From NCBI GenBank assembly GCA_964565425.1, contig CAZMEZ010000004.1:24907-88906 (forward strand): a stretch of DNA of 64,000 nt, given 5' to 3'. This document shows positions 22,036 to 56,871 of this stretch, one piece after another. Below the pieces are notes generated by a model. That model had not been told where the DNA came from. It did not search any database and saw nothing but the letters and a program-made list of their open reading frames with translations. Position numbers and translations under genes: made by a program. Position 1 is the first letter of the stretch, and the number at the start of each line of letters is the position of its first letter. The stretch comes from an uncultured Planctomycetia bacterium (GTDB lineage: Bacteria; Omnitrophota; Gorgyraeia; Tantalellales; Tantalellaceae).

Positions 22036-22049
22036 CATAGGAGAAGTAT

Positions 22050-27050: not shown

Positions 27051-27051
27051 A

Positions 27052-31960: not shown

Positions 31961-33394
31961 ATGGCGAAAATATTGCTTATACATCCGCCTTTCGGCACCG
32001 GGGACGATAAACGTCCGCCGGACATCTTTGATCCGCATTTCCCCTGGGGCCTTGGCTATATAAGCGGGACGCTTAAGAAAGAAGGATACGATATCAAGGT
32101 CTTTGACATATACGTCCACCAGTGGGACAAGGCCGAGACCCTCGAAAAACTGAAGCTCGAGGAATACGACCTCGCGCTGATAACGGCCATGGCGACGCAA
32201 TATTTATACGTGAAATGGCTGGCCGGGGAGCTCAAAAAGAACCAAAAAGTGTGTAAGGTGATCCTCGGCGGCCAGCTTGCCACGTTCAGCCATGAAGTCG
32301 TCCTCAGGAATACGGCGGTCGATATCTGCGTCATAGGGGAAGGCGACGTAACGATAGTGGATCTTGTAAAGAACATCGATACTCCTCGCAGTGTTAAAGG
32401 GATAGCGCTCGGGGATGGAGATAAAGTGCTTAAGACCGGCCCCAGGGAGCTCATCAAGGACATCGACAGCATCCCGAACCCCGCGTACGAGCTTTTCAGG
32501 ATGGATATTTACAGGACGAACAAGCTTTATATACACCATAAATCGGCGGTCCTGTACAGCGAGCGGAAAAGGCCGCACGTGATGGCGATGATCACCGGGA
32601 GGGGGTGTCCCTTCGGTTGTAATTTTTGCAGCAGGACCTTCAGGAATATAAGGATAAGGTCCGTCGAATCGATCGTGAGGGAGATAGATTTTTTCATCAA
32701 GGAATACGGCGTAGGCGGCATAAACTTCGTGGACGAACTGCTGTTCCTAAAACAGGACACGATAGACCGCCTGGCGGAAGAACTCGGGAAGAGGGGGATC
32801 CTGTGGAACGGGCAGGCGAGGGTGGATACCATAAATCTTGAACGCCTGGAATTTTACAAGAAGAACGGCCTGGTCTCCATAGGGTTCGGAGTGGAATCGG
32901 GAAGCGACCTCATGCTCGAGAAGATGAATAAGGGCATCACCAGAGAGAAGATAGAAAGGGCGATACGGAAGACGCTGGAAGCGGGCCTGCATCTCAAGAT
33001 GACGCTGATCTTCGGGTATCCGGGAGAAACCCGCGAGACCCTGGAAGAGACGGTCGACATGTTCAGGCGCCTCAGGCATCCCGGCAGGAGGTTCTGTATT
33101 TTAACTCCTTTGCCCGGGTCGAAAGTCTATGAGTCGGCGAAGGAAGAGGGATTGATCTCCGATGAGGACGAATACCTTTCCAGCATATGCGAAGGGTATT
33201 GGAGAAGGGCCGTGAACATGACGGGGTTCGGGGATGACGAATTCGAGAAGGTCCGCTCGGAGACCGAAAGGAAGATGAGGGAGAATTATAAAGAATATCT
33301 TTCATCGCTGCCTCAGGACGAGGCGCGAGAACAATATTTACTGTGTGAAGAGGATTTCGAAAAGGATTTTATCAACAGACCGAAAGTGCAGTAG
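31961..33394 (+). CDS. B12-binding-domain radical SAM protein (paralogue 1)
   Basis: N-terminal Rossmann-like B12 domain (MAKILLIHPPF...) and the CxxxCxxC motif GRGCPFGCNFCS. Confidence 0.85.
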   Translation: MAKILLIHPPFGTGDDKRPPDIFDPHFPWGLGYISGTLKKEGYDIKVFDIYVHQWDKAETLEKLKLEEYDLALITAMATQYLYVKWLAGELKKNQKVCKVILGGQLATFSHEVVLRNTAVDICVIGEGDVTIVDLVKNIDTPRSVKGIALGDGDKVLKTGPRELIKDIDSIPNPAYELFRMDIYRTNKLYIHHKSAVLYSERKRPHVMAMITGRGCPFGCNFCSRTFRNIRIRSVESIVREIDFFIKEYGVGGINFVDELLFLKQDTIDRLAEELGKRGILWNGQARVDTINLERLEFYKKNGLVSIGFGVESGSDLMLEKMNKGITREKIERAIRKTLEAGLHLKMTLIFGYPGETRETLEETVDMFRRLRHPGRRFCILTPLPGSKVYESAKEEGLISDEDEYLSSICEGYWRRAVNMTGFGDDEFEKVRSETERKMRENYKEYLSSLPQDEAREQYLLCEEDFEKDFINRPKVQ

Positions 33395-33412
33395 GGCCGG
33401 ATATCAAGGAGG

Positions 33413-34351
33413 ATGGATATGAATAACGGGAAAAACGCAAAAAAGGGCCTGAATATAATGGTGACGGGCGGGTCGGGCTTCCTCGGAAGCCATATAGCGG
33501 ACGCCTTGACGGGCGCCGGGCACAAGGTGACCATATTCGACATCAAGGAGTCGCCGCATCTCAGGGCCGGGCAGCAAATGGCCCGGGGGGATATTCTTGA
33601 CGCGGAAGAACTTGTCCGCCGGATGAAGGGCATGGACGTCGTGTTCCACCTCGCGGCGCTGGCCGACCTCGACGCGGCCTACGACAAACCCCACGAGACG
33701 ATGAAGATCAACGTCCTGGGGACGGCCAACGTGCTGGAGGCCGCCCGTATCAACAACGTGGGCCGGGTGGTGTTCGCCAGCACCATATACGTGAACAGCC
33801 GCACGGGATCGTTCTACCGGGTGAGCAAGCATTCCTGCGAGCTGCTGTTCGAGGGGTACCACGAGAGGTACGGCCTGGATTACACGATCCTCCGGTTCGG
33901 AACGCTCTACGGCCCTCGCGCCAGCGACAATAACAGCGTTTTCAGGTACCTGAAAGAGGCGCTGGATACCGGGAAAATAAAGTACAAGGGGACGGGCGAA
34001 GAGGTAAGGGAATATATTCACGTCCGCGACGCGGCCAGGATATGCGCGAAGATCCTGGACGGCGATTTCAGGGGCAAGACGCTGATCCTGACCGGCCACC
34101 ACCGCATGAGGTTGGAAGAACTCCTGAACATGGTGAAGGAAATACTCGACAGCAGGGACAGGAAGATAGAGATAACCTGCAACCCGAAGGAATCGGAATC
34201 GCATTACGTCCAGACCCCGTATTCCTACATACCCCGCGTAGGCGAAAAGATAATAACCAATACCTACTGCGATCTCGGGCAGAGCCTTGTCGAGATACTG
34301 GACGAGATCGGGTCGAAAAGGTCCCATAAAGAGATAGAGATAAAGATCTGA
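33413..34351 (+). CDS. NAD-dependent sugar epimerase/dehydratase (SDR)
   Basis: VTGGSGFLGSH and YRVSK. Confidence 0.8.
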   Translation: MDMNNGKNAKKGLNIMVTGGSGFLGSHIADALTGAGHKVTIFDIKESPHLRAGQQMARGDILDAEELVRRMKGMDVVFHLAALADLDAAYDKPHETMKINVLGTANVLEAARINNVGRVVFASTIYVNSRTGSFYRVSKHSCELLFEGYHERYGLDYTILRFGTLYGPRASDNNSVFRYLKEALDTGKIKYKGTGEEVREYIHVRDAARICAKILDGDFRGKTLILTGHHRMRLEELLNMVKEILDSRDRKIEITCNPKESESHYVQTPYSYIPRVGEKIITNTYCDLGQSLVEILDEIGSKRSHKEIEIKI

Positions 34352-34361
34352 AGGCAAAAAG

Positions 34362-36185
34362 ATGAAGAATAATAAGTTCGAGACGATTAAGAACCTGGGA
34401 TATCTGATAAAACGGAGGCCGGGAGCGCTTGCCTGGTTCACCGGTGTAATAACCCTCGCCGGTGTCCTGGAGGCCTTCGGCATAGGTCTGTTGTATCCCA
34501 TCATGAGCGTGCTGGAGGACCACGCGAAAAGAGCGGGATACGTGACGCGGGTCAATGACCTGCTGGGGACCAGCCTGACGGAAAGCGTATTCATAACCGC
34601 GCTTCTCTCGACGGCTCTTTTGCTTTTCATCCTTCGTGGCCTGTCCATAATAGGTTCGTATTACGGGCAATACCGGCTGACCGAGGGGCTGCGAATAGAT
34701 TTCCAGTCGACCATATTCACGAATGATCTGGACCAGGAATACGAATATTTCGTGAAACACAGGACAGGGGACCTGGTGCAGAAACAAATGATACACACCG
34801 AAATGGCCGGGGACGCGGTCCTGTACTCCTGCCAGATAGCCCGCAACCTTTTTACCGCCGCGTGTCTTTACGTGACGCTTTGTATCGTTTCGCTGAAAGG
34901 GGCGCTAATGCTCACGGGGATAATGGCCGTGCTGACAGTGGTAGCGCTTATAGTTTCCAAAGTGAAGATATACGCGGCTTCACAGGAACATGCCGACCTG
35001 CAGAAGAGGGCGTATTCCATCGCGGTCGAGACGATGACGGGCATAAGGCAGGTAAAGGCTTTCCTGGCCGAGCAATTCTTCTCGAAAAAATTCGGAGAAA
35101 CGATTACAAGGAAAGCCGCTATCTACAGGAAGAACGCCACCATAGGCCAGATGCCCACGCCTGTCATGCAGACGAGCGTCCTGGTGGGGGTCGTAGCGGT
35201 GCTTTTTCTCGCGTTCAGGTATAAAGGCAGCGTGAGCGGACTCCTTCCCCTGGTGGTCGTTTTCGGGGGAGGCGCTTACAGGATAATCTCTTCCGTGGCG
35301 GGACTCAACAGCAGCTTCATGCAGATAGCGCACCTCTTGCCTTCGGTGAACATAGTCGCGGACCTCTTGAAGTGGAAGCCCGTTCATGAAAACCTTGCCG
35401 GGGCGGGCCGTTTTGAAAAGGATATAGTCTTCGAGGAAGTGGAATTCTCGTACCCGAGGGAAGGGTTCAAGCTTTCCGGCATCGACCTCGAGTTCGAGAA
35501 AGGGAAATTTTACGGTATCGTGGGGTCTTCCGGCAGCGGGAAATCCACTCTGGTGGACCTTATCATAAAGTTCTATCACCCCGGGAGGGGCAGGATACTG
35601 GTCGACGGGAAGGACCTTAAGGGGATGGACGCGCGCTCCTGGCGCAAGCAGATCGGCCTCATAAGCCAGGAGACGTTCATATTTAACGGGACAATAGAGG
35701 AGAACATATCTTTCGCGGTGGACGAGGCGGAAAAGGATACAGGCAGGATAGAGGCAGCCGCGAGGACCGCCGACCTGCACGACTTTATTAAAAGCCTGCC
35801 GGAAGGTTACGGGACGATTGTGGGAGAAAGAGGCCTCACGCTCTCCGGGGGGCAGAGGCAGCGGCTCGCGATCGCGAGGGCCGTTTACAGGGATCCCGAG
35901 ATATACATATTCGACGAGGCGACGAGTTCCCTGGACACGCATTCGGAGAAAAGGATACAAGGGGCCATAGAAGAACTGAGCCGGTCAAAGACCGTCATAG
36001 CGGTGGCCCACAGGTTGTCCACGGTGGTCCATGCCGACGAGATCATCGCGATGAAGGACGGCAGGATAATGGAAAAAGGCCCTCATTCGGATCTGATGGA
36101 AAGGGAAGGTTTCTACGCCGGGCTATACACGCACCAATACTCCGCGGAACGGAGACAGAAGGAAGGGGACGCGGTAAGCTCTTAA
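34362..36185 (+). CDS. ABC transporter, fused permease/ATPase (MsbA/PglK-like exporter)
   Basis: Six-TM N-terminal half, Walker A GSSGSGKST, signature LSGGQRQR, Walker B IYIFDEATS. Confidence 0.85.
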   Translation: MKNNKFETIKNLGYLIKRRPGALAWFTGVITLAGVLEAFGIGLLYPIMSVLEDHAKRAGYVTRVNDLLGTSLTESVFITALLSTALLLFILRGLSIIGSYYGQYRLTEGLRIDFQSTIFTNDLDQEYEYFVKHRTGDLVQKQMIHTEMAGDAVLYSCQIARNLFTAACLYVTLCIVSLKGALMLTGIMAVLTVVALIVSKVKIYAASQEHADLQKRAYSIAVETMTGIRQVKAFLAEQFFSKKFGETITRKAAIYRKNATIGQMPTPVMQTSVLVGVVAVLFLAFRYKGSVSGLLPLVVVFGGGAYRIISSVAGLNSSFMQIAHLLPSVNIVADLLKWKPVHENLAGAGRFEKDIVFEEVEFSYPREGFKLSGIDLEFEKGKFYGIVGSSGSGKSTLVDLIIKFYHPGRGRILVDGKDLKGMDARSWRKQIGLISQETFIFNGTIEENISFAVDEAEKDTGRIEAAARTADLHDFIKSLPEGYGTIVGERGLTLSGGQRQRLAIARAVYRDPEIYIFDEATSSLDTHSEKRIQGAIEELSRSKTVIAVAHRLSTVVHADEIIAMKDGRIMEKGPHSDLMEREGFYAGLYTHQYSAERRQKEGDAVSS

Positions 36186-36199
36186 GGCGGGTAAAGATC

Positions 36200-37942
36200 A
36201 TGGAACGATCGGGTAAAGAACTGATAATACTTGTGGATAAGGCCGGGCTGGCGGCCGCAGGCCGTTCGCTCCTGGAAAGGTGCGATCGTGTTGCCATGAC
36301 CCCGGACGCGATACTCGCCTTAGAGGAAGAAGGTCTGTCCTTTTCCACGTTCGACGATATTTACGGGTACAGGCAGTTTCGCGAGGACAACCTAAGGATG
36401 ATGGATGAGACGGAAGACCTGTTCAGGGATCTGGACAGGAAATACAGCGCGTCTTTGGAGTATCCCCGCGCTTTTACGGGCAATATACTGTGGTTCCTGG
36501 TGTTCTTTGCCAACGCCCTTTATCTTTCGAAAGTGTGCCGGTGGGCTAAGAACAACTATACTAAGGTCCATTTGGCCGGTAGCGCTAAGTACGACAGGCC
36601 GCTCAGGATAGACCTGGATTTCTCCGAAAGGGGGCTCGCGTTCTGCGATTTTAACCGGGAACTGGCCAGCAAGGTCAGCATGCTGAGGGATGTTTTATCC
36701 CCGGATTGTTACTGGAGCGCCAATGCCCCCCAAAGGGGCGCCGGACGGCCCGTCGGTAGACAACAGCTGTTATTTTCCGCGAGGCAGACGGTCAAAAAGC
36801 CTTTAGTCAGAGCGAGAGCGTTTTTTGAAGAACATTCAGGTAAAGATAAGGATGTCATATTCGTAGTGCGGGACAGCAATGAAGTGAATTTCGTAAAAAG
36901 ACACATGGGGGATGTTGCTCTCAAGAAACCGCTCAAGAGAATGCTCGAGGACGCGTTCGAAGGGCGTTTGGAGAAGCAGGATATCGAATGCTCTTTCGAA
37001 ACAGAGATCCGGAGTTTCGCGTTGAAATGGTTCCCGGAATTCGAAAAGCGCGTCCTGGAAGCGTTCGAGGCCTATTTTGAAAAAGCGGTTCGCTGTCTCC
37101 GGGCATTTATGGACAAAGTAGAGGAAGCGTTCAAAGCGGACTCCCCGAAGGCGGTGTTCTATTCGTTTTCCCCCAACAGGGTATACGAGGACGTGCTCGC
37201 TTACGCGGCGAACGAGAGGAACATACCCGTGTTCGCTTTCTGGCATGTCGGTTCTCATGAAAAAGACAAGGATATTTACGCGAAGTACCTGGAGAGCAAT
37301 GAAAACGTGAAAATGGATGTCCTGGAGGTAAGCAAATTCTACAACCTGCATCTGGACCGGAAGAGCGGCAGGGGCAAAGGTATTTTATACTTCCCCGGGA
37401 TCTTTAATTCATACAACTACAAGGATCTCATGGTCAACGTTCCCGATAGAGCGCTTTTTGAGGTTACCAGGGACATAGTGGAGGTTGTCGGCGAGTTCGG
37501 CGCGGAGATGGATATAAAGATACACCCTAATGACGAAGAATACAATTATACGTATTTCAGCAACCTGCTGAAGGCAAAGGGGGCCGGGAACATCGGCATA
37601 CTCAGGGGATTCCCGGCGGAAAAGATAATGAAGCATTACAGTCTCTTTATATTCGATTACGCCGGGACCAGCTTGATACCGGCTGCCGGGGTTTTCGACA
37701 CGCCGGCTATATTGTATATAACCGACGATAGTGTTTTGAGGGAGAAAGCGATCCCGGACCTGGAGAGAAAGTTCCATATGGCTCGGCACAGATCCGATCT
37801 TGTGAAGCACATTAGCCTTTATGTGCAGGGAAAACTGGAAACAAAAATAACGGGTGAGCACGCTTTCCCGGCAGGGGAAGAAGCCCCTTGCGTTAAGATG
37901 GCAGGGTATGTGAAGAGCGTGATCGATACCGTAAAAACCTGA
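36200..37942 (+). CDS. hypothetical protein; possible GT-B-like transferase distantly related to 29491-30996
   Basis: No family recognised. DIKIHPND ... IFDYAGTSLIPAAGVFDTPAILYITDD has the same motif order as the other orphan. Confidence 0.25.
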   Translation: MERSGKELIILVDKAGLAAAGRSLLERCDRVAMTPDAILALEEEGLSFSTFDDIYGYRQFREDNLRMMDETEDLFRDLDRKYSASLEYPRAFTGNILWFLVFFANALYLSKVCRWAKNNYTKVHLAGSAKYDRPLRIDLDFSERGLAFCDFNRELASKVSMLRDVLSPDCYWSANAPQRGAGRPVGRQQLLFSARQTVKKPLVRARAFFEEHSGKDKDVIFVVRDSNEVNFVKRHMGDVALKKPLKRMLEDAFEGRLEKQDIECSFETEIRSFALKWFPEFEKRVLEAFEAYFEKAVRCLRAFMDKVEEAFKADSPKAVFYSFSPNRVYEDVLAYAANERNIPVFAFWHVGSHEKDKDIYAKYLESNENVKMDVLEVSKFYNLHLDRKSGRGKGILYFPGIFNSYNYKDLMVNVPDRALFEVTRDIVEVVGEFGAEMDIKIHPNDEEYNYTYFSNLLKAKGAGNIGILRGFPAEKIMKHYSLFIFDYAGTSLIPAAGVFDTPAILYITDDSVLREKAIPDLERKFHMARHRSDLVKHISLYVQGKLETKITGEHAFPAGEEAPCVKMAGYVKSVIDTVKT

Positions 37943-39649
37943 ATGGAGCGGCCTAAAATGGAAAAAATAAGAGATATACGCGAAGCTTTTGAAAGACCGG
38001 GATTGGCCCGGATAGTCGGGGCGCACGACGGGCTTACGGCGAAGCTTGTGGAGAAGAACGATTTTGACGGGGTGTGGGCGAGCGGCCTCGAGATATCCGC
38101 TTCCTACGCTATCCCCGACGCCAGCATTCTCACGATGTCGCAATACCTGGAAAGGGCCTGTGAAATGAAAGACGCGGTATCGATCCCCGTCGTCGCGGAC
38201 TGCGATACCGGATACGGCAATTCAAACAACGTGATACACATGATCAAGAAGTATGAAGCGGCGGGGATCTCCGGAGTATGCATAGAGGATAAGAGGTTCC
38301 CCAAAGTGAACAGCCTTCTCGCGGAAGGAAGGCAGGAGCTCGCTCCGATAGCCGAATTCGTGGGCAAGATAATGGCCGCGAAGAACGCCCAATGCTCGGA
38401 AAGGTTCATGGTAATAGCGAGGGTGGAAGCCCTTATAGCCGGGTGGGGGGAGCAGGAAGCCCTTCTCAGGGCCGAAAAATACGCCGAGGCCGGGGCGGAT
38501 GCCATCCTGATACATTCCAAGGCGAATACCGCCGATGAAGTCATAAGTTTCGCCCGAAAGTGGGACAGGAGGCTGCCTTTGGTCATAGTGCCTACCAATT
38601 ATCCGTCGGTCATGATGGATCTTGGTGAGAAGGAGCTGCTTGATCTGGGCATAAAAATGGTGATCTTCGCGAATCAGGGATTAAGAAGCGCTATCAGGGC
38701 CATAAACGACACTTTCGCCGAGATAAAACAGGCGGGAGGCATACATACGGTGGATGGGAAGATCGTCAGTCTTGATGAAGTTTTCCACCTGCAGGGCATG
38801 ACCGATTTCAAGAAGCAGGAGAAGGAATACCTGAAGTCGGAGAATGAAGATGTTGCCGTTATCATGCCCGCTGCCGGGAAACCGGCCCACCAGGATTCCA
38901 TCGTGCCGCTGCTCACGGACAGGCCGCTTTGCATGATAGATATCAACGGGAAGACCCTGCTTGAAAGGAATCTGAACACCCTGAAGGAATTGCGTATCAA
39001 GAACGTGAATATGGTTGTCGGCTACAAGAAAGAGAGCATCCTCAAGGGGCTCGACCTGGACGGCATAAATCTCATCACGAACGACGATTACAGGACCAAA
39101 CACCTGCTCCATTCCATCATGCTTGCCGAGCGGGAGATGAAAGACAGGACGCTTATAGTCTACGCCGACATACTGTTCGATAAGAATCTCGTCAGCAGGA
39201 TCCTGGGTCTCAAGGAGGACATAGTCCTGGTGGGGGATAACACCTACAAGAAGTATGGGAAACGCAACAAGAAACTCGAGCTGATCAAAACATCCGAACC
39301 CATGACCACCGGCAAACGGGAGATCGCCAACGACGAACTTTTTAGCGTGGAGAGGATCGGCAGGGAAGTGGACGAGGCACCCTCGAATTTTGAATTCGCG
39401 GGCATAGCTTATTTGTCAAGGAAAGGGACGCAGTCGCTGAAAAGACTTTATTGCGAAAGGAAAAAAGAATTGGAAGGCGGGGACGAAAGGTTCCATGAAG
39501 CCGGGGGTTTCGACCAGGCGTCATTTACGGATATAATACAGGAAGCGATCGACAGCGGGATTTCGGTAAAGGTGTTGCCCGTGAATTCCGGTTGGATGGA
39601 GATACATGAATTCGAGGATTACAGGTTCGCCTGTGAAAAGATAAAGTAA
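37943..39649 (+). CDS. pepM: phosphoenolpyruvate mutase fused to a C-terminal nucleotidyl(cytidylyl)transferase domain
   Basis: IVGAHDGLTAKL, ADCDTGYGN and the diagnostic EDK-x5-NS motif (EDKRFPKVNS, nt 38285-38314). From about aa 303 (nt about 38849) an NTase fold begins (VAVIMPAAGKPAH...). Confidence 0.85.
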   Translation: MERPKMEKIRDIREAFERPGLARIVGAHDGLTAKLVEKNDFDGVWASGLEISASYAIPDASILTMSQYLERACEMKDAVSIPVVADCDTGYGNSNNVIHMIKKYEAAGISGVCIEDKRFPKVNSLLAEGRQELAPIAEFVGKIMAAKNAQCSERFMVIARVEALIAGWGEQEALLRAEKYAEAGADAILIHSKANTADEVISFARKWDRRLPLVIVPTNYPSVMMDLGEKELLDLGIKMVIFANQGLRSAIRAINDTFAEIKQAGGIHTVDGKIVSLDEVFHLQGMTDFKKQEKEYLKSENEDVAVIMPAAGKPAHQDSIVPLLTDRPLCMIDINGKTLLERNLNTLKELRIKNVNMVVGYKKESILKGLDLDGINLITNDDYRTKHLLHSIMLAEREMKDRTLIVYADILFDKNLVSRILGLKEDIVLVGDNTYKKYGKRNKKLELIKTSEPMTTGKREIANDELFSVERIGREVDEAPSNFEFAGIAYLSRKGTQSLKRLYCERKKELEGGDERFHEAGGFDQASFTDIIQEAIDSGISVKVLPVNSGWMEIHEFEDYRFACEKIK

Positions 39650-39662
39650 GGGGAAAAAGGAT

Positions 39663-41213: not shown

Positions 41214-41234
41214 TCTTACAAAGGATGATCGAAG

Positions 41235-42392: not shown

Positions 42393-43513
42393 TGTTGAAT
42401 TATCGCATGCCGACGAACATAAATTTTGGTAAAGATTGCCTGGCCGGTCTGGCCGATGTTATCGCGCCTGGCCCGGCGGGGAAAGTCCTTGTTTTCACGG
42501 GAACAGGATCGGCTAAAATTTCAGGCGCTCTTGACCGTATAACCGGGATATTGTCCGGGTGCAACCCGGTCTTTTTTGAAGGTATAGAGCCCGATCCCGC
42601 CTTAGAGAGCCTGGAAAGAGGCATAGAAGTGTGCAGGCGGGAGGTCCCGGACCTCATCATAGCGGTCGGCGGAGGCAGCGTTATCGATTACGCGAAAGCG
42701 GTTTCCGTCCTGGCGGGGGAAGAAGGGGAAGTGTCGGATTTCTTCAGGGGCGGACGGAAACTAAAAGGCGGCAGGGCCGCGTTTATCGCGGTCCCGACCA
42801 CTTTCGGCACTTCGAGCGAGATAACCCCTTACGCGGTGATGACCGATACGGTAAACGGTATCAAGATCACCCTGGAAGACGCGAGCATATTCCCGGACCG
42901 GGCGTTCATTGACCCGAAATTTACCTTGACGATGCCGGAAGAGCTCGTGGCCGCCTCCTGCGCGGATCTCCTGTCCCACGCTGTCGAGGCGTACTGGAAC
43001 GTGAACGCCACGGAACTCACGGATATTTTCGCGTTGCAGGCCATAAGAACTTTCATGGGATCCTACAAGCGGACGTTCGAATCCCCCGCCGATACGGCAG
43101 CCAGGGGAAGGATAGTCCTGGCGGGCATATGCGCCGGATTGGCTTTTTCGAACACCAGGACAACGGCGTGCCACTCCATCTCATATCCGATGACCGCTGT
43201 CTTCGGCGTGCCTCACGGCATGGCATGCGTTTTAACGCTGGGCGAGATGCTGGAGTTCAATTCGACGGCTAGCGGGGAAAAGCTCCTGGCGTTGTGCGGC
43301 GCCATGGATTGCGGTGATGTGCGGGAAGCGAAACAGAAAATAGGATCTATCCTGAAAGATCTGCGCATTAAAACAAGATTAAGGGATTACGGCCTGAAAA
43401 AGGGCGATCTTGCCCTTATCCTGGACAAGGGGTTCACCCCGGAGAGGATGGCGAACAATCCCGGTAAGGTCACCAGGGACGACCTGGAAAAAATGCTGGA
43501 GAGGATATATTGA
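42392..43513 (+). CDS. iron-containing (group III) alcohol dehydrogenase; phosphonoacetaldehyde reductase by context
   Basis: GGGSVIDYAKA and the metal His cluster HSISYPMTAVFGVPHG. The start is uncertain (GTG 42392, TTG 42395 or ATG 42407). Confidence 0.7.
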   Translation: MLNYRMPTNINFGKDCLAGLADVIAPGPAGKVLVFTGTGSAKISGALDRITGILSGCNPVFFEGIEPDPALESLERGIEVCRREVPDLIIAVGGGSVIDYAKAVSVLAGEEGEVSDFFRGGRKLKGGRAAFIAVPTTFGTSSEITPYAVMTDTVNGIKITLEDASIFPDRAFIDPKFTLTMPEELVAASCADLLSHAVEAYWNVNATELTDIFALQAIRTFMGSYKRTFESPADTAARGRIVLAGICAGLAFSNTRTTACHSISYPMTAVFGVPHGMACVLTLGEMLEFNSTASGEKLLALCGAMDCGDVREAKQKIGSILKDLRIKTRLRDYGLKKGDLALILDKGFTPERMANNPGKVTRDDLEKMLERIY

Positions 43514-45000: not shown

Positions 45001-45019
45001 TACCGCGAAGGATCTATCG

Positions 45020-45739
45020 ATGAAAGCAGTTATAGTAGCGGCAGGAAGATCGAGCAGGTTGTATCCATTGACCCTGGACACGCCGAAACCTCTCCTGGAG
45101 GTCAACGGCAGGTCCATCATCGAGCGTTCCATTTCCAATCTTCGCCGGAACGGCATAGACGAGATCGGGGTAGTGGTCGGCTATCTGCGGGAACGGTTCC
45201 TTGAAGCGCTGAAGGACGGGGTGACGTTCATCGATAACCCGCGTTACGCGACCACGAACAACATGGCTTCCCTCTGGTATGCCAGGGATTTCGTGGGGGG
45301 TGACGAGTTCGTGTATCTGCACGGGGACGTAGTGTACCACCCGGACATACTTGAAGATTGCCTGAGGTGCGACGGTGATATCACCCTGATGGTCGACAAA
45401 AAGAAGTGCGACGAAGAGGACATGAAGGTAAGGGTTGCGGGTGACCGCTTCCTGGGATCCAGCAAGGACATACCGGTGAATGAGTCCTACGGGGAGTGGA
45501 TAGGGATCGCTAAATTTTCCGCCAAGGGCGGGAGCCTGGTATTCAGCGAAATAGACAAGGTGCTGGACGACGGGAAGAACAACGCTTATGACACCTATGC
45601 TTTTACGGGACTGGCCATGCGGGATCACCCGATAGATATCTGCCATACGCGGGGCTTGTCCTGGGTCGAAATAGATTTTCCGGAAGAACTGGAAAGAGCA
45701 AAGAAGATATGCCTGGCCATGGAGAAAGAGGGGGAATGA
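45020..45739 (+). CDS. LicC-like sugar/alcohol-phosphate nucleotidyltransferase
   Basis: MKAVIVAAGRSSRLYPLTLDTPKPLLEVNGRSIIE NTase signature. Confidence 0.8.
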   Translation: MKAVIVAAGRSSRLYPLTLDTPKPLLEVNGRSIIERSISNLRRNGIDEIGVVVGYLRERFLEALKDGVTFIDNPRYATTNNMASLWYARDFVGGDEFVYLHGDVVYHPDILEDCLRCDGDITLMVDKKKCDEEDMKVRVAGDRFLGSSKDIPVNESYGEWIGIAKFSAKGGSLVFSEIDKVLDDGKNNAYDTYAFTGLAMRDHPIDICHTRGLSWVEIDFPEELERAKKICLAMEKEGE

Positions 45740-46653
45740 TGAGGTCCTTGAAGGATATCAGGAAAATGCAGTACGAGTATCATTACGAACATGAGATGTG
45801 CCAGTTCTTCAGGGATTGGAAGAAGGCCCCGTACTCGTATTTCAGGGGTATCATGTGGATGGAGATGAGCTCGTTCGTCGTTTATATCCTGCAGAGAACG
45901 AAGGTCACGCCCAATGCCCTCTCGGTCGCTTATTGCCTGTCCGGATTGGCCGGCGGGGTCCTGCTGGCTATCCCGATGAAGGCGACCATCCTTGCCGCTG
46001 TCTTTGTGTTCTTTTTTAAGGCGATATTCGACTGGTGCGACGGCTTGCTCGCGCGCGTAACGCGCAAATTCTCTCTTGTAGGGGATATACTGGATTGCTA
46101 CGGTGCCATTTTGGGAGCCATGGGGCTTGAGATAGGACTGGGATTCTATGTAGCCCACAGATCCGGCATGGCCCTGTATTACTATCTTATACCTCTTATT
46201 CCCTTATTTTTCTTTGGTAAGCTGCACTCGTTCGTGTTTCACATATTTTACAAGAACTATATTACGACCCCGAGATTGAAGGAACTTTTCGGCAAACAGG
46301 CGCGGGATCACGCGGCACAGGCCGCCGGCAGCGGTCCGGAAAAGGTCCTTAGCGGGGGGTTCGAAAAAATAAGGAATTTCATCAACAATTTTCTGGATCA
46401 TCGTTCCAGGACCATAGATCTTATATGCCTGTTGCTTTTGGTGGAGCAGTTCACGCCCGTTTTCGTCACATGGATAGTGTTCCTGGGGTTTGTGATCAAG
46501 GAATTTCTGTTGTTCTCGGCTTCGTTCTATGTCGTAGCGAGGCGCGGGTGGGCGGAAAAAGAGATGGAAAAGAAACTTGCAGAGATATCGGGATCTTTCC
46601 CGCGGGGGGCGGAAAAGAGCGGCGCCGAAGTTCCGGTATCGCCGGAGGAGTGA
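45736..46653 (+). CDS. CDP-alcohol phosphatidyltransferase-family membrane protein (variant motif)
   Basis: Multi-TM protein. The motif FDWCDGLLAR-x8-G-x3-D-x3-A (nt 46030-46107) matches D-x2-DG-x2-AR-x8-G-x3-D-x3-D except that the last Asp is Ala. The ATGA overlaps the upstream gene (the track gives 45709). Confidence 0.6.
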   Translation: MMRSLKDIRKMQYEYHYEHEMCQFFRDWKKAPYSYFRGIMWMEMSSFVVYILQRTKVTPNALSVAYCLSGLAGGVLLAIPMKATILAAVFVFFFKAIFDWCDGLLARVTRKFSLVGDILDCYGAILGAMGLEIGLGFYVAHRSGMALYYYLIPLIPLFFFGKLHSFVFHIFYKNYITTPRLKELFGKQARDHAAQAAGSGPEKVLSGGFEKIRNFINNFLDHRSRTIDLICLLLLVEQFTPVFVTWIVFLGFVIKEFLLFSASFYVVARRGWAEKEMEKKLAEISGSFPRGAEKSGAEVPVSPEE

Positions 46654-46660
46654 TCAATCC

Positions 46661-47701
46661 ATGAACATAGAAAATCTGATAGACAGCCCGTTGAAAAAGG
46701 AAGGGGATATATGGTACGGCCCCGAGGGCGGGTACTGGTCCAACCTGGAGAGGTCCAAGAGTGAGATCTATCTGAAGGACCTGGAGGCCCTGGGTTCGAT
46801 GGAGACCATGAAAAAATATTTTCCGCAGCACGGGGACGTCATTTCCCTGAAAAGGATGGGCGGGGCCGCGACACTTGACCTTGCCCCGGGCGAAAAGGTG
46901 CTTGACGCGGGTTGCATGTGGGGAGCGCTCGCGGTGCCGCTTGCCAGGACACGGGCGGAGGTCATTGCGGTCGACCAGACCAGGGAAAGCATGCTGTTCC
47001 TGGCCAAAAGAAAGGAAGAAGAGGCCCTGGAGAACCTGCACCTGGTGTGCGGCGACCTGAAGGAAATAAAATTCAGGGAGAAGATTTTCGATAAAGTGAT
47101 CGTGAACGGCGTGCTGGAATGGGTCCCCGAAACGCAAACGGTCGAGGTGGGGAATTTTATCAGGCGGAAAAATCCTTTCCTCGAGAACCTGAAACTCCTC
47201 TTCTCGAAGCGGGAGAGAAAGGATTCCCCGAGGGAAAAACAGCGTCGTTTCCTGGGTAAGATACAAAGGGCGCTCAAGGATGACGGCACCCTTTACCTGG
47301 CGATAGAGAACAGGTACGATGTTTTTTATTTCTTCGGTATTCCCGAACCGCATTGCGGGATCAGGTTCATTTCGCTCTTGCCGCGGTGGGCGCAGGACAT
47401 CCTGTCGCTGCTCCTCAGGGGGAGGAGGTTCAGGTTGTGGACTTATTCGAAAAAGGAACTGGAGGACCTGTTGCGCGCGTCCGGGTTCTCGAAAATAAAG
47501 TTCCATTACGCTTTTCCGGATTATAAGGAACCGGAGCAGGTCTTGACGGATGAAGGGATGGAACTCTTCAGGTATTGCAAATCCGCGGGAGATAAGCCGT
47601 TCTATAAAAAGGCCGTCCTGCGGTTTATCGAGGAAGTCGTGTTCAAAAGGATGAAACTGACGTTCTTCGCGCCGAGCTTTATCGTGCACGCGGAGAAGTG
47701 A
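46661..47701 (+). CDS. class I SAM-dependent methyltransferase
   Basis: VLDAGCMWGALAVPLA motif I. The internal ATG 46661 avoids overlap with the upstream gene (the track gives 46577). Confidence 0.7.
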   Translation: MNIENLIDSPLKKEGDIWYGPEGGYWSNLERSKSEIYLKDLEALGSMETMKKYFPQHGDVISLKRMGGAATLDLAPGEKVLDAGCMWGALAVPLARTRAEVIAVDQTRESMLFLAKRKEEEALENLHLVCGDLKEIKFREKIFDKVIVNGVLEWVPETQTVEVGNFIRRKNPFLENLKLLFSKRERKDSPREKQRRFLGKIQRALKDDGTLYLAIENRYDVFYFFGIPEPHCGIRFISLLPRWAQDILSLLLRGRRFRLWTYSKKELEDLLRASGFSKIKFHYAFPDYKEPEQVLTDEGMELFRYCKSAGDKPFYKKAVLRFIEEVVFKRMKLTFFAPSFIVHAEK

Positions 47702-47865: not shown

Positions 47866-47918
47866 TTTAGCCGGGATCTTAAAGTTTACGGCTTACAGCT
47901 GACAAAGAAAGGTATGAT

Positions 47919-48803
47919 ATGAATATATTCGTGACGGGAGCGGCGGGCATGCTGGCCGAGGATGTAGCGAAGGTCTTTCGGAAAGAAGGACACCGGCTTA
48001 TTTTGACGGACATCAACAAGAGGCTCCCCGATATTGAAGCGCTGGATGTCGCCAATGACGCGGAAGTGCTTCGCCGGATAGAAGAGGCCCGCCCGGATTA
48101 CGTGTTCCACCTGGCGGCGGAAACGAACGTTGACCTCTGCGAGGAAGACCCGGAGCACGCTTACAGGGTGAACGTCAAAGGCACCGGCAACATCGCGCGC
48201 GCTTGCGGCCAGACCGGCGCGGCCATGCTCTATATCTCCAGCGGCGCCATTTTCGACGGGAAAAAAGACGCGCCGTACACGGAGGACGACAAGCCCGCCC
48301 CCGTGAGCGTGTACGGCCGCACCAAGCTTGAGGGGGAATACGAGGTAAAGGGTCTTTTGGAAAAATATTTCATTGTCCGTGCCGGATGGATGATAGGCGG
48401 ATGGGAACTCGATAAGAAGTTCGTGTACAAGATCGTCCGGCAGCTTAAAGAAGGCAGAAAGGAACTCAGGGTCGTGTCCGATAAGTTCGGAAGCCCCACT
48501 TTTACATGGGATTTCGCCGCGAACCTGATGGACCTGGTGAAAAGCGGCAAATTCGGGCTCTATCACATGGCGAATAAAGGCACCTGTTCGCGTTACGATA
48601 TCGCCGTAAAGATCGTGGAATTCATGGGGCTTAAGGGTAAGGTAAAAGTGACCCCGATAAGTTCGGACGAGTTCCCTCTGCCGGCGCCGCGGGCGCGTTC
48701 AGAGATGATAGAGAACCGGAACCTTGAAAAGCTCGGGATAAATAATATGCCGCGCTGGGAGGGATCACTGGCAAGGTATATCAGGGAGAATAAAGACAAG
48801 TAA
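47919..48803 (+). CDS. RmlD-like NAD(P)-dependent sugar-nucleotide reductase (dTDP-4-dehydrorhamnose reductase family)
   Basis: IFVTGAAGMLAEDV, YGRTK, 294 aa. Confidence 0.75.
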   Translation: MNIFVTGAAGMLAEDVAKVFRKEGHRLILTDINKRLPDIEALDVANDAEVLRRIEEARPDYVFHLAAETNVDLCEEDPEHAYRVNVKGTGNIARACGQTGAAMLYISSGAIFDGKKDAPYTEDDKPAPVSVYGRTKLEGEYEVKGLLEKYFIVRAGWMIGGWELDKKFVYKIVRQLKEGRKELRVVSDKFGSPTFTWDFAANLMDLVKSGKFGLYHMANKGTCSRYDIAVKIVEFMGLKGKVKVTPISSDEFPLPAPRARSEMIENRNLEKLGINNMPRWEGSLARYIRENKDK

Positions 48804-48823
48804 GGAGACATTGTTACCGGAAC

Positions 48824-49759
48824 ATGAAGTTTTCGATCACCATACCTTTATTTAACGGCGCGAAATTCATAGCGAATACGCTTGATTCGGTCCTGGCGCA
48901 GACATACAAGGATTATGAAGTGATCCTGGTCAACGACGGTTCACCGGATAACATCGGTGAAGTGGTCCGCGAATACATGGGCGCGCACCCCGAAACGCGT
49001 TTTATTTACGTGGAGCAGGAGAACCGCGGGTTGGGAGGGGCGAGGAACACCGCCATAAAGCACGCTTCCGGCGATATCATAGCGATCCTGGACCAGGATG
49101 ACATCTGGTACCCGGAAAAGCTGGAGAGGGTGGCGTATATATACCGGCAGTCCCCCGAAGTCGACGTTGTATGCCACGGCCAGATAGTGCGCCGGGACGG
49201 GAAGGTGGTGCGCATTTTCGATCCCGGTCCGGACAACAATATTCACCGGAGGCTGCTCTTTGTCGATAACATGCTTTCCACCTCGGCTACGACCTTCAGG
49301 AAAGCCATTATAGATGAAATAGGGGGTTTTTCGGAGGACAGGGAGAACTTTCATTTCGCCGAGGACTATGACCTTTGGCTGAGGATGGCGGATAAAGGAT
49401 ACAAGTTCCGTTTCACCGGCGAGATCCTCGGCGAATACAGCGAACATGATTCTAATTTTTCACATAATCTGGAAGTGATGCTGGATAGCGAGATAAACGT
49501 TTTATTGAAACATTATAAGTCCTTTAAAAGCAAGAACTTAAAGGATATTTACCTGATGAGGAGGAACCTCGCGGTGGTATATTTCCGCATCTCGAGAAAA
49601 TATTTCCGGCAGAAACGCGCTCTTTACGGTCTCGGATACCTGACAAGGGCTTTCCTGCAGGACCCGTTTTTTATCGTGACATACACACCGCATTACATCG
49701 AGAAGTTAATGCGCAAAAGGGATCCGGAGATCTCGCTCGGAGAAGAATTCCGATCATGA
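48824..49759 (+). CDS. family 2 glycosyltransferase
   Basis: SITIPLFNGAKFI, VNDGSPD, and a DQDD (DxD) motif. Confidence 0.85.
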   Translation: MKFSITIPLFNGAKFIANTLDSVLAQTYKDYEVILVNDGSPDNIGEVVREYMGAHPETRFIYVEQENRGLGGARNTAIKHASGDIIAILDQDDIWYPEKLERVAYIYRQSPEVDVVCHGQIVRRDGKVVRIFDPGPDNNIHRRLLFVDNMLSTSATTFRKAIIDEIGGFSEDRENFHFAEDYDLWLRMADKGYKFRFTGEILGEYSEHDSNFSHNLEVMLDSEINVLLKHYKSFKSKNLKDIYLMRRNLAVVYFRISRKYFRQKRALYGLGYLTRAFLQDPFFIVTYTPHYIEKLMRKRDPEISLGEEFRS

Positions 49760-51228
49760 AAATATTGTTCGTTTATCCGGGATATATCGTTAGAGAAGTG
49801 CCGCTTAACGTGATGTACGTGAGCGCGGCTATTGAAAAAGCCGGGCACCAGAGTCGTCTCTTTCACTTCAGTCCTTACCGCAGGCTTACCTGGACCAAGG
49901 ATGTCGCGGAAAGGATCGAAGAAGGTTTTCTGGAGATGATGAACGATTTCAAGCCGGATCTCGTGGCCTTCTCGGTAATGGTCCAGGATTATAACATAAC
50001 GAAATGGCTCTCCTGGCTTGCGCGTGATCGTTACAAATTACCGGTGGTATGGGGAGGCATACAGCCTATCCTTGAGCCCGACCGGAGCATAAGCGAACCC
50101 GAAGTGGATTACATATGCACGGGCGAGGGAGAGAGGGTATTCCCGGAATTCCTTGACCGGCTCCAGAGGGGCAGAGGATCGATGGAAGTGCCGGGTATCT
50201 GGGGCAAAGACGCCTCGGGAACGGTTTACCGCAACGGCCGGCCGGACTTGATCGAGGACCTGGATGAATTGCCGTTCCCGAACAGGGATCTTTTTGAGCC
50301 CGGGTATTACCGCGCGGAATTGACCGGGGCTAATATCCTCACGGCGCGCGGATGTCCTTTTCCCTGCAGCTTCTGCCAGAACAAGGCGCTGATAGAGACT
50401 TACAGGGGTAAAGGGAAGTTCATACGCTACAGGAGTTTTGATAACGTGTTCCGTGAGATGGAAGAGGTCATTGAAAAATACCAGGCGCCGTCATTCTATT
50501 TTTCCGACGAAATGTTCACGCTTAATAAGCAACGGGCGCTGGATTTCTGCCGGGAATACAAAAACCGCATCAATAAACCTTTTATGGTGCAGACCCGCGC
50601 TGATTACGTGGACGAAGAACTGGCGCGCGCTTTGAGCGGAGCCGGATGCGCAATGGTTAACATGGCCATCGAAAGCGGAAACGAACATATACGGAACAAT
50701 GTCCTCAAAAAGAGCATACCGACGGAAAAGATAATGCGCGCTTATAAGCTTATGGACGATTACGGCATGATGTCCAGCAGTTTTAACATGATAGGCGTGC
50801 CGGGGGAGACTTTAGATACCATCTGGGATACCATCGAGATAAACAAAAAGCTTAAACCGGACCGTATATTGTGCTCCATATTCATGCCCCTGCCGGGCAC
50901 CGAACTCGGTGATTACTGCAAAAAGACCAGGCTGATAACGGAGGATGTGGCGGAGACTACGAATTATTATTCACAGGTCACTATCAGGAATCCCAACCTG
51001 TCGGCGCGGACGCTTATCGGTTACCAGGGGTTTTTCGACTGGTTCGTGCTTCTCCCGACCAAATTCCACGGGCTGGTGCATGTTCTGAGGATGATCTATC
51101 AGGGGCTTGTTACGCCGAAAATACCCAAAAACCCGATAAAAAGGAAACTGAGGGAAATGATCGTTGAGGCGGTGTACCAGATGAAAGCTTATCTGCCTCA
51201 AAAGAAATTTCACGCTAAAACGCGTTAG
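49756..51228 (+). CDS. B12-binding-domain radical SAM protein (paralogue 4)
   Basis: B12-domain N-terminus and ARGCPFPCSFCQN. The ATGA overlaps the GT2 gene. Confidence 0.85.
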   Translation: MKILFVYPGYIVREVPLNVMYVSAAIEKAGHQSRLFHFSPYRRLTWTKDVAERIEEGFLEMMNDFKPDLVAFSVMVQDYNITKWLSWLARDRYKLPVVWGGIQPILEPDRSISEPEVDYICTGEGERVFPEFLDRLQRGRGSMEVPGIWGKDASGTVYRNGRPDLIEDLDELPFPNRDLFEPGYYRAELTGANILTARGCPFPCSFCQNKALIETYRGKGKFIRYRSFDNVFREMEEVIEKYQAPSFYFSDEMFTLNKQRALDFCREYKNRINKPFMVQTRADYVDEELARALSGAGCAMVNMAIESGNEHIRNNVLKKSIPTEKIMRAYKLMDDYGMMSSSFNMIGVPGETLDTIWDTIEINKKLKPDRILCSIFMPLPGTELGDYCKKTRLITEDVAETTNYYSQVTIRNPNLSARTLIGYQGFFDWFVLLPTKFHGLVHVLRMIYQGLVTPKIPKNPIKRKLREMIVEAVYQMKAYLPQKKFHAKTR

Positions 51229-51244
51229 TGAGCAGGGATATCTT

Positions 51245-52591
51245 ATGGCAAAAGTACTTTTAATATCACCGCCGTTCTACAGGCTGATGAGGAGCCATTA
51301 TAACGGCCTGGACCTGGGGCTTTCTTACATAGCTTCTTTTCTCAGGCGCGGCGGCCATGAGGTCGTCATATATAACGCCGATTTTTACGACGACGACCAT
51401 TACCTGGACCAGAGGCGGCTTTTCGCCAATTTCGATCATTTCAAGATCGCCCTGGATAACCTGGAACATCCGATCTGGAGAGAAGTCCGGTTCGCGATAG
51501 GGGATATCGCTCCCGACTTCATCGGCATACAGGTCTATACCGGGACCTTCATCAGCGCCGGGAATGTAGCCGCTATAGCCAGGGAGGTGGACCCCGTCGT
51601 GAAGATAATAGCGGGCGGGACCCATCCGACGCTTGACCCCGCGGGCACCATCAAGTCAGGGGTATATGATTACGTGGTCAGGGGTGAAGGCGAGCAGGTC
51701 ATGCTGGATATAGCCAACAACGCGGATCCCCGCGGGATCAAAAGCCTGACGTTCATAGACAGTGACGGGAAGGTCGTGAACAACGATCACAACGGGTTCA
51801 TCGAAGACCTCGATTCGCTCCCATTCCCTATGAGGGACGGGTTTTATCCCGCGAAGGGTAAGGTGGACGTGGGCGCCGTCATCACGTCCCGTGGCTGTCC
51901 TTTTGAATGCACTTATTGCGCTTCACCGCGGATATGGGAGAGGAAAGTGCGGTACAGGAGCGTCGATAACGTGCTGGCGGAGCTGGAATACATGGTCAAG
52001 GCCCGCGGCGTTGAGCTGGTCAGGTTCCAGGATGACACCTTCACCCTCAATAAGGCAAGGACCATGGAAATACTGGACAAGATGATGACAAAAGGGCTTA
52101 ACGTCAAGTGGCTCTGCGATACCAGGATAGACGTTCTGGACGCAGAGATGCTCAGGATGATGAAACGGTCGGGGTGCGTCAGGCTTAAGACCGGCGTGGA
52201 ATCCGGAAGCGATAAGATACTTAAGAAGATAAAAAAAGGCATCTCGGTCGACCAGGTCAAAAAAACCGTAAAACTTATAAAGAACACGGGCATACCCCTG
52301 ACGGCATATTTCATGATAGGTTTTCCCGGAGAGACGGACGAAGACATTAGAAAGACGATAGGGCTCGCCGACGAGATCAACGCTGATTACAACAGCTTGA
52401 GCATCGTCGCGCCATATTTCGGCACGCAGGTTTACAAAGACCTCATTGATTCGGGGTTCGATTTTACGAAGCCGCACTGGGAATATTTTTACCACCAGAG
52501 CAAGGAGATGATACTCAACGCGAATATTTCCAAGCATCTTATAGACGAATTTTTCAGTCTTAACGAAAAAAGCAGGGAAGGAAGAATATGA
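51245..52591 (+). CDS. B12-binding-domain radical SAM protein (paralogue 5)
   Basis: MAKVLLISPPF start and SRGCPFECTYCAS. Confidence 0.85.
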   Translation: MAKVLLISPPFYRLMRSHYNGLDLGLSYIASFLRRGGHEVVIYNADFYDDDHYLDQRRLFANFDHFKIALDNLEHPIWREVRFAIGDIAPDFIGIQVYTGTFISAGNVAAIAREVDPVVKIIAGGTHPTLDPAGTIKSGVYDYVVRGEGEQVMLDIANNADPRGIKSLTFIDSDGKVVNNDHNGFIEDLDSLPFPMRDGFYPAKGKVDVGAVITSRGCPFECTYCASPRIWERKVRYRSVDNVLAELEYMVKARGVELVRFQDDTFTLNKARTMEILDKMMTKGLNVKWLCDTRIDVLDAEMLRMMKRSGCVRLKTGVESGSDKILKKIKKGISVDQVKKTVKLIKNTGIPLTAYFMIGFPGETDEDIRKTIGLADEINADYNSLSIVAPYFGTQVYKDLIDSGFDFTKPHWEYFYHQSKEMILNANISKHLIDEFFSLNEKSREGRI

Positions 52592-56859: not shown

Positions 56860-56871
56860 CAGGGGGATTAA

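Follow-up and report, generated by a model that had tools for sequence, protein, structure and literature searches.

What does a bacterium do with five B12-binding radical S-adenosylmethionine (SAM) enzymes encoded among the genes of one envelope glycan? The question is raised by a stretch of 64,000 nucleotides (the window, in what follows) of contig CAZMEZ010000004.1, positions 24,907 to 88,906, from an uncultured bacterium of the Omnitrophota (GenBank assembly GCA_964565425.1), in which five open reading frames (ORFs), here called rS1 to rS5, lie within 20.6 kb (Table 1). An earlier note on this DNA had described the five as paralogous, had assigned one of them to phosphonate chemistry and the other four to the methylation or rearrangement of sugars in a structural polysaccharide, and had considered such a density atypical of envelope glycan loci. 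The reading favoured here, which we hold to be on balance probable, is that these are five anciently diverged enzymes of the class B type, each of which would tailor a different building block of one surface glycan supercluster.

Five old families of one enzyme class

That the five ORFs lie on the + strand and combine a B12-binding domain with a radical SAM motif, as had been noticed, is borne out by Pfam and by the translations. The Radical_SAM family (PF04055, cut-off 29.5 bits) is matched by all five, at 64-113 bits and E-values of 2e-17 to 3e-32, and the B12-binding family (PF02310, cut-off 32.1 bits) is matched above its cut-off by rS1, rS2, rS4 and rS5 (47-65 bits), rS3 being marginal, just below it at 31.7 bits, but homologous to rS4 over its full length. 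The CxxxCxxC motif can be read in each translation, and the N-terminal sequences MAKILLIHPPF and MAKVLLISPPF are confirmed. By their predicted architecture, a radical SAM core joined to a B12-binding domain, the five belong to class B, and would be expected to use cobalamin.

All-against-all BLASTP places pairwise identity among the five at 22-30%, the closest pair being rS3 and rS4 (30% identity over 461 residues, 191 bits). They therefore represent five old and separate families of one superfamily, with no local expansion; the term “paralogous” is accurate in that they are homologous members of that superfamily, but they are not close paralogues. A recent expansion of one gene family within the locus was considered and rejected, on account of these identities and of the separate orthologue set that each gene possesses. 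The occurrence of five such genes within 20.6 kb cannot be a matter of chance. The enzyme class is known, but these families of it are new and uncharacterised, and the context in which they are found has no characterised precedent.

The region from roughly 15.1 to 62.8 kb is a single large cell-surface glycan supercluster. It contains 43 co-directional ORFs (15113 to 62835); the median gap between them is 8 bp and overlaps of 1-4 nt are frequent, among them those of rS4 with the upstream family 2 glycosyltransferase (GT2; 4 nt) and of rS5 with the DegT-family aminotransferase, and gaps of more than 200 bp occur within it only at 25.2, 47.7, 59.4 and 61.3 kb. Its parts are a pseudaminic-acid pathway, a block around rS1, a phosphonate cassette that holds rS2 and rS3, and an amino-sugar and assembly module to which rS4 and rS5 belong. 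The earlier view that the enzymes sit inside a genuine envelope glycan locus is upheld by equivalog matches to PseB (497 bits, cut-off 408), PseC (500, cut-off 424), PseI (466, cut-off 340), the WbuX amidotransferase (318, cut-off 203) and HisH (242, cut-off 105), and by the presence of GT2, family 4 (GT4) and WecG glycosyltransferases, a WbaP-like transferase and an ATP-binding cassette (ABC) exporter; the neighbouring epimerase, GT2, DegT, methyltransferase and phosphoenolpyruvate (PEP) mutase that had been named are all recovered by Pfam.

The amino-sugar cassette

rS4 and rS5 are preceded by a GT2 and followed by the DegT aminotransferase, a short protein of the short-chain dehydrogenase/reductase (SDR) family and a GT4. 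The rS5 family comprises upwards of 100 clusters of full-length orthologues that share an identity of at least 48% with it, nearly all of about 448 residues, and the set rS5-DegT-SDR is kept in at least six lineages (rS5 38-86% identical, DegT 48-82%, SDR 42-74%), namely Omnitrophota, Deltaproteobacteria, Chloroflexi/Dehalococcoidia, Nitrospinales, a further metagenome-assembled genome (MAG) and a Pelagibacteraceae single-cell genome; in a Lentisphaerae MAG (locus L086), rS5 and DegT are conserved but the adjoining SDR is only 28% identical. For rS4, about 75 orthologues at an identity of at least 39%, mostly of 489-491 residues, are followed by a fall to 36% or less, and a comparison of the two hit lists, in which the lengths of the longest contigs coincide, indicates that rS4 repeatedly shares contigs with rS5, one MAG having the order rS5, rS4, DegT, SDR. 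A GT2 stands directly upstream of the rS4 orthologues in loci L085, L086 and L087, and where rS4 occurs elsewhere without rS5 the order is GT2-rS4-epimerase-GT2, or rS4-epimerase-GT2 among housekeeping genes. Homology between the two families extends over their whole length (27% identity by hhalign). A minimal set of rS4, an epimerase of 306 residues and a GT2 was also observed outside large glycan loci (L087 9249-13362 and L108 10001-13271), the one in an Aminicenantes MAG being surrounded by housekeeping genes.

The families of rS1, rS4 and rS5 thus adjoin sugar-nucleotide enzymes and glycosyltransferases in unrelated phyla, which is the pattern expected of sugar-tailoring enzymes. To this extent the proposal that sugars are C-methylated or rearranged by members of the group finds support, while the chemistry itself stays conditional, no family cut-off being reached by any of them. 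rS4 and rS5 may act, together with DegT, the short SDR and the GT2 and GT4 enzymes, on an amino-deoxy sugar. Gentamicin biosynthesis offers a parallel, in that the class B enzymes GenK and GenD1 methylate unactivated carbons of amino sugars and are found beside an oxidoreductase and a DegT-type aminotransferase. Both enzymes are listed in a review of the class (PMC12931638). By description of the gene sets, the logic of rS4/rS5-DegT-SDR is that of garosamine and purpurosamine tailoring (GenD2/GenS2/GenD1, GenK), although GenK and GenD1 belong to actinomycete antibiotic pathways and rS4 and rS5 to an envelope glycan locus.

The combination of an oxidoreductase, an aminotransferase and a class B enzyme fits the pair AprD4/AprD3 equally well, and an alternative follows the latter model: rS5, and possibly rS4, would be an AprD4-like, cobalamin-independent dehydratase that converts a vicinal diol to a keto-deoxy sugar, which DegT would then transaminate or the SDR reduce, as AprD3 does. 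We regard this as fairly unlikely, although several observations speak for it. AlphaFold2 models were built from orthologue alignments (predicted local distance difference test, pLDDT, of 90.6 for rS5 and 92.9 for rS4), and the Foldseek matches of rS5 are, in order, AprD4 (6fd2, with paromamine; template-modelling (TM) scores 0.74/0.73, E 3e-24), MgmA, TsrM, OxsB, CysS and TokK; those of rS4 are MgmA, TsrM, AprD4 (TM 0.67-0.75) and CysS. The best matches in PDB sequence searches are AprD4, top for four of the five enzymes, and 9ccb, which is MgmA/QCMT, the glutamine C-methyltransferase that acts on MCR (methyl-coenzyme M reductase). Both AprD4, whose substrate is a sugar, and rS5 are compact two-domain proteins of about 450 residues with a reductase partner, the partners of rS5 being a keto-sugar aminotransferase and an SDR. 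A cassette with an rS5-like gene is present, moreover, in a single-cell genome of the Pelagibacteraceae, which to our knowledge are regarded as independent of B12 and devoid of B12-dependent enzymes.

Other features of rS5 argue against a dehydratase. Unlike that of AprD4, its N-terminal domain is a significant PF02310 match, at 64.5 bits against a cut-off of 32.1, and although rS5 is the best of the five on the NCBIfam model of AprD4 (NF033070), it scores 126 bits against a cut-off of 500, over residues 187-405 of the radical SAM core only, whereas the HpnJ, ApyD and BchE models outscore that of AprD4 and cover the N-terminal domain. MgmA, TsrM, CysS and TokK fit the fold of rS5 almost as well as AprD4 does. 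MgmA, which ranks first among the structural matches of rS4 and second among those of rS5, shares with both a compact class I B12-radical SAM fold that has no C-terminal extension, but its substrate is a protein, identity is about 20%, and its model (TIGR04014) gives 81-123 bits against a cut-off of 360. As AprD4 and MgmA fit about equally, the fold confirms the superfamily and does not separate a methylase from a dehydratase. Most characterised class B enzymes are methyltransferases (PMC12931638), and on the strength of such base rates and of the strong PF02310 match, methylation is ranked as the most likely chemistry of the amino-sugar cassette enzymes and dehydration second.

In the Pelagibacteraceae genome AG-464-G19 (L081 7575-13473), the genes form an island between YidC and dCTP deaminase/MurA, which consists of a DedA/VTT protein, an FkbM methyltransferase, the rS5-like gene (38% identity), DegT (48%) and the SDR (45%).

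The phosphonate cassette

The second cassette runs from a fusion of PEP mutase (Ppm) with a nucleotidyltransferase through rS2, a phosphonopyruvate decarboxylase (Ppd), an Fe-dependent alcohol dehydrogenase (Fe-ADH), rS3, a second nucleotidyltransferase and a CDP-alcohol transferase to a methyltransferase. The Ppm motif EDKxxxxxNS is present as EDKRFPKVNS at residue 115, and both this motif and the type of fusion have been described previously (PMC6697681). The best NCBIfam model of the dehydrogenase is the phosphonate-associated Phn_Fe-ADH (252 bits, cut-off 424), and the pair formed by the second nucleotidyltransferase and the CDP-alcohol transferase resembles the IPCT/DIPPS arrangement. As judged from these predicted neighbours, two of the enzymes belong to phosphonate chemistry, rS2 between Ppm and Ppd and rS3 between Fe-ADH and the nucleotidyltransferase, so that the division into one phosphonate enzyme and four sugar enzymes is replaced by one of two and three sugar candidates.

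The older division, with a single enzyme for the phosphonate and four that would C-methylate or rearrange the sugars of a structural polysaccharide, is now improbable. It has in its favour that all five genes lie within the glycan locus and that rS1, rS4 and rS5 keep their sugar-gene neighbours in other genomes, but the string from Ppm to GT4, in which both rS2 and rS3 are embedded, recurs as a unit on two metagenome contigs (L085 and L091) at 54-89% identity, and relatives of both are found beside phosphonate genes elsewhere. A 52% relative of rS3 adjoins a fusion of transaminase and nucleotidyltransferase together with Ppd, and a 43% relative adjoins Ppd, a methyltransferase, a transaminase of the 2-aminoethylphosphonate (AEP) type and a cytidylyltransferase-LicD fusion. 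The rS2 family is small, with about ten 50%-identity clusters at an identity of at least 39%; in the Lentisphaerae locus L086, Ppd is followed by an rS2-like gene (33%), which precedes a nucleotidyltransferase, a transaminase of class V (AEP-type) and a CDP-alcohol transferase, and next come a fusion of methyltransferase and kinase, another rS2-like gene, GT2, rS4 (60%), rS5 (49%) and DegT. Genes like rS2 and rS3 thus stand beside Ppd and AEP-type transaminases, and both families are therefore linked to phosphonates well beyond this genome, the phosphonate in question being apparently 2-hydroxyethylphosphonate (HEP) in this locus and AEP elsewhere. In an Omnitrophota locus (L088 17053-21446), a gene for a protein of ~600 residues is followed directly by the CDP-alcohol transferase, the methyltransferase and an APH-like kinase, and, when it is compared with positions 36200-47701 of the window, the seven phosphonate genes found there, including Ppm, rS2, Ppd, the dehydrogenase and rS3, are missing between the same flanking genes; the phosphonate genes therefore behave as an insertable cassette.

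In the mechanism that we propose, the Ppm-nucleotidyltransferase, Ppd and Fe-ADH would give rise to HEP, activated as a nucleotide conjugate, and rS2 and rS3 would modify its C2-phosphonate skeleton, the likeliest reaction being a Fom3-like, methylcobalamin-dependent C-methylation that one or both of them would perform, once or twice. The downstream nucleotidyltransferase, the protein of the CDP-alcohol transferase family and the methyltransferase would then complete the head group and link it to an acceptor, either a glycan or a lipid. The closest parallel is the fosfomycin pathway, since a Ppm-nucleotidyltransferase fusion, Ppd, Fe-ADH and a class B enzyme recall Fom1, Fom2, FomC and Fom3, the match being one of gene sets. 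In that pathway the class B enzyme Fom3 methylates C2 of the cytidine monophosphate conjugate of HEP (CMP-HEP), made by the Ppm-fused cytidylyltransferase (PMC9088020). The two systems differ in that the nucleotidyltransferase is C-terminal to Ppm here and N-terminal in Fom1, that there is one radical SAM enzyme in the fosfomycin pathway and two here, and that the epoxidase HppE and FomD are not present here; in addition, the cassette leads into a CDP-alcohol transferase and a methyltransferase, within a glycan locus, and its product is therefore presumably a surface decoration and not an antibiotic. The simplest idea for the pairing of two enzymes on one phosphonate is that methylation is iterative or regio-distinct.

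A further likeness connects rS2 to PhpK and SD_1168, class B enzymes of phosphonate and phosphinate clusters. The best NCBIfam model of rS2 is that of the Sden_1168 P-methyltransferase family (NF038361; E 6e-70) and it also matches PhpK (TIGR04479), the other four enzymes scoring lower on both, but at 236 bits against 575 and 120 against 600 it is a member of neither family, and no scanned ORF of the window matched an H-phosphinate pathway family. Class B is a very large subfamily, and a search with rS2 alone returned 44,518 representative clusters at an E-value of 0.001 or better, and these include giant proteins of 1500-2330 residues with 2-6 separate rS2-matching stretches (P0377, P0380, P0384, P0409, P0415, P0419, P0441 and P0498), which, as far as their sequences indicate, look like fusions of several B12-radical SAM units.

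For the two cassettes there is a more specific proposal, which we put forward only tentatively: rS5, with or without rS4, would form with DegT and the SDR a new radical route to a branched (C-methylated) or deoxygenated amino sugar in the surface glycans of many uncultured lineages, Omnitrophota, Chloroflexota, Lentisphaerota, Deltaproteobacteria, Nitrospinales and Pelagibacteraceae among them, and the twin enzymes rS2 and rS3 would generate a new, once or twice C-methylated hydroxyalkylphosphonate head group on the cell surface. An example of the latter would be 2-hydroxypropylphosphonate or a further homologue.

The rS1 block

rS1 is preceded by a cytidylyltransferase, a soluble protein of 501 residues and a methyltransferase, and is followed by an SDR. 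The same order is kept in the Omnitrophota locus L088, at 50-72% identity and beside nonulosonate genes, the rS1 orthologue itself being 65% identical. About 15 rS1 orthologues have an identity of at least 56%, and a broad family follows at 37-44%; in an Elusimicrobia MAG one relative (41%) is the gene immediately downstream of NeuB, and another is found among GT2, Glyphos_transf and flippase genes. rS1 may thus act with the cytidylyltransferase, the 501-residue protein, the methyltransferase and the SDR, beside the pseudaminic-acid pathway, and the obvious candidate for its substrate is a CMP-activated acidic sugar or the N-acyl group of the latter.

The 501-residue protein has no match in Pfam, NCBIfam or PDB sequence searches, and the same is true of a soluble protein of 580 residues (36200-37942), which precedes the phosphonate cassette and is 36-41% identical to its counterparts in related Omnitrophota loci; both are candidates for novel transferases. 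Upstream of PseB, at 15475-17714, lies a trio that encodes a D-2-hydroxyacid dehydrogenase, a cyclase-family protein and a hydrolase of the haloacid dehalogenase (HAD) type. In L088 its counterpart is placed directly downstream of the pair formed by rS1 and the epimerase, a position which suggests that the trio belongs functionally to the rS1 block.

Density in related loci

Loci related to this one also hold several B12-type radical SAM genes. There are four within 12 kb in the Lentisphaerae locus, three each in a deltaproteobacterial locus and in another MAG, and two each, together with a SPASM radical SAM gene, in Chloroflexi and Elusimicrobia loci; by gene counts only, four Bathyarchaeota MAG loci (L014, L023, L025 and L030) carry four or five within about 20 kb. 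With two to four such genes in related glycan loci, the density is therefore not unique to the locus studied here, which amends the earlier note on this point. Five in one locus is at the high end of a general and unstudied pattern. Literature searches yielded no relevant paper on enzymes of the B12-radical SAM type encoded in loci for O-antigen, capsule or nonulosonic acids.

Points that weigh against the proposal

Several observations weigh against the idea that each of the five is a cobalamin-using enzyme that tailors its own building block of the glycan. None of rS1 to rS5 reaches the cut-off of any NCBIfam model, and function is therefore not transferable by homology. AprD4, which heads the structural matches of rS5, is a dehydratase of a sugar 1,2-diol and neither uses nor binds cobalamin (PMC12931638), so that a class-B-like fold can occur without the cofactor. 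Current reviews offer no motif by which cobalamin binding could be proved from sequence, and the residue that aligns with the lower-axial Trp76 of TokK is small or polar and not conserved among the five, although this mapping comes from a weak HMMER alignment at about 20% identity and was rejected as a test of cobalamin binding for that reason. No gene for B12 uptake or synthesis was found among the annotated ORFs, and no Rfam family, cobalamin riboswitch included, was detected, in the window of 64,000 nt, which says nothing on the genome as a whole. The presence of two radical SAM enzymes for a single phosphonate is a further difficulty. Finally, an inventory of Ppm neighbourhoods, which mentions radical SAM only beside Campylobacter ppm-ppd, treats the CDP-alcohol transferase family as a marker of phospholipids and phosphonolipids (PMC8942020), so that the final acceptor of the phosphonate may be a lipid and not a glycan.

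This last point is shared by an explanation in which the substrates, for part of the five or for all, would be lipid carriers, lipid anchors or proteins in place of sugars or phosphonates, for instance a polyprenyl-phosphate-linked intermediate, the head group of a phosphonolipid or a glycoprotein; the sugar genes would then stand nearby for no other reason than that they supply the same envelope structure. Models of HpnJ, which acts on a hopanoid-linked sugar, of a ladderane-lipid family and of BchE are among those that score highest: BchE (TIGR02026) is the best model for rS1 and rS3, at 171 and 113 bits against a cut-off of 481, and HpnJ (TIGR03471) the best for rS4 and rS5, at 130 and 196 bits against 578. 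The pairing of GT2 with rS4 also resembles that of HpnI, a GT2, with HpnJ on a lipid-linked amino sugar; a membrane protein of the CDP-alcohol transferase family lies inside the phosphonate cassette; and PMT_2 GT-C transferases in related loci, like the DedA/VTT protein of the Pelagibacteraceae locus, suggest polyprenyl-phosphate-linked intermediates. The explanation is nevertheless highly improbable, as the HpnJ, ladderane and BchE scores are 2.5- to 5-fold under their cut-offs and thus indicate no membership of a lipid or porphyrin clade, no bacteriochlorophyll, tetrapyrrole, hopanoid or ladderane genes are present in the window, and the neighbours that are most tightly linked and best conserved (DegT, SDR and NeuB) are soluble enzymes of the sugar-nucleotide type.

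Features of the locus

Table 1. Genes and gene groups of the glycan supercluster, with coordinates in the window
Feature	Coordinates	Strand	Description	Evidence
Pseudaminic-acid pathway	17743-28077	+	with acetamidino modification	NCBIfam
Cytidylyltransferase	28814-29500	+	CTP_transf_3	Pfam; 72% identity in Omnitrophota locus L088
501-aa protein	29491-30996	+	soluble	50% identity in L088
Methyltransferase	30996-31943	+	class I SAM	Pfam; 64% identity in L088
rS1	31961-33394	+	B12-binding/radical SAM, 477 aa, CPFGCNFC	PF02310 57.2 bits
SDR	33413-34351	+	epimerase/dehydratase	Pfam; 68% identity in L088
ABC exporter	34362-36185	+	fused transmembrane and nucleotide-binding domains (TMD-NBD)	Pfam; 56% identity in L088
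Ppm fusion	37943-39649	+	PEP mutase with C-terminal NTP_transf_3 nucleotidyltransferase	PF13714 181 bits; PF12804
rS2	39663-41213	+	B12-binding/radical SAM, 516 aa, CPEKCAFC	PF02310 58.1 bits
Ppd	41235-42392	+	phosphonopyruvate decarboxylase-like thiamine pyrophosphate (TPP) enzyme	TPP_enzyme_N/C
Fe-ADH	42392-43513	+	Fe-dependent alcohol dehydrogenase	Fe-ADH domain
rS3	43513-45000	+	B12-binding/radical SAM, 495 aa, CPYNCTYC	PF02310 31.7 bits
Nucleotidyltransferase	45020-45739	+		Pfam
CDP-alcohol transferase	45709-46653	+	CDP-alcohol phosphotransferase-family membrane protein	Pfam
Methyltransferase	46577-47701	+	SAM methyltransferase	Pfam
RmlD	47919-48803	+	reductase	NCBIfam 254 bits, cut-off 224
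GT2	48824-49759	+	glycosyltransferase	Pfam
rS4	49756-51228	+	B12-binding/radical SAM, 490 aa, CPFPCSFC	PF02310 46.8 bits
rS5	51245-52591	+	B12-binding/radical SAM, 448 aa, CPFECTYC	PF02310 64.5 bits
DegT	52588-53748	+	DegT-family aminotransferase	Pfam
SDR	53723-54592	+	short SDR, 289 aa	Pfam
GT4	54615-55760	+	glycosyltransferase	Pfam
Assembly module	55873-61342	+	GFO/IDH/MocA oxidoreductase, hexapeptide acyltransferase, WecG/TagA glycosyltransferase, multi-transmembrane (TM) 439-aa protein, WbaP-like initiating phosphoglycosyl transferase	Pfam, TM scan

All of the ~56 sizeable ORFs of the window are on the + strand, GC skew is positive almost throughout, and the counts of a promoter and terminator scan over 24-64 kb were not above those of shuffled sequence. 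Upstream of the supercluster lie RpoN and an NtrC-type sigma-54 activator (8434-12336), as well as glycogen genes. Within the pseudaminic-acid region, where the pathway looks complete, a HisF/WbuZ-like protein and a PseG-PseH fusion fall slightly under their NCBIfam cut-offs, and the same region also carries a class-III aminotransferase and a metallo-beta-lactamase (MBL)-fold protein. RmlD passes its equivalog cut-off, yet RmlA, RmlB and RmlC were not found in the window. The assembly module has a syntenic counterpart, 74-79% identical, in the Omnitrophota MAG locus L005. Among genome representatives the closest is a MAG of Candidatus Omnitrophota, in which rS5 is 86% identical and synteny begins at the GT2 and reaches the initiating transferase; those orthologues of rS1 and rS4 that carry a name likewise come from Omnitrophota.

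Implications

The substrates of characterised class B members are, with few exceptions, antibiotics, cofactors, peptides and hopanoids, and the locus described here, with its relatives, draws attention to at least five uncharacterised families whose conserved neighbours, in envelope glycan loci, are genes for sugar nucleotides, nonulosonic acids or phosphonates. These families offer a lead for enzymology and do not constitute a categorical surprise. If sugars and phosphonates are indeed methylated or deoxygenated by them, the surface glycans of uncultured anaerobes would hold monosaccharides and phosphonate head groups that are absent from glycan catalogues, and the three-gene cassette of rS5, DegT and SDR would provide a tractable entry to new radical sugar chemistry. 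The synthesis of surface glycans would, in that case, also be tied to the availability of B12 in these organisms.

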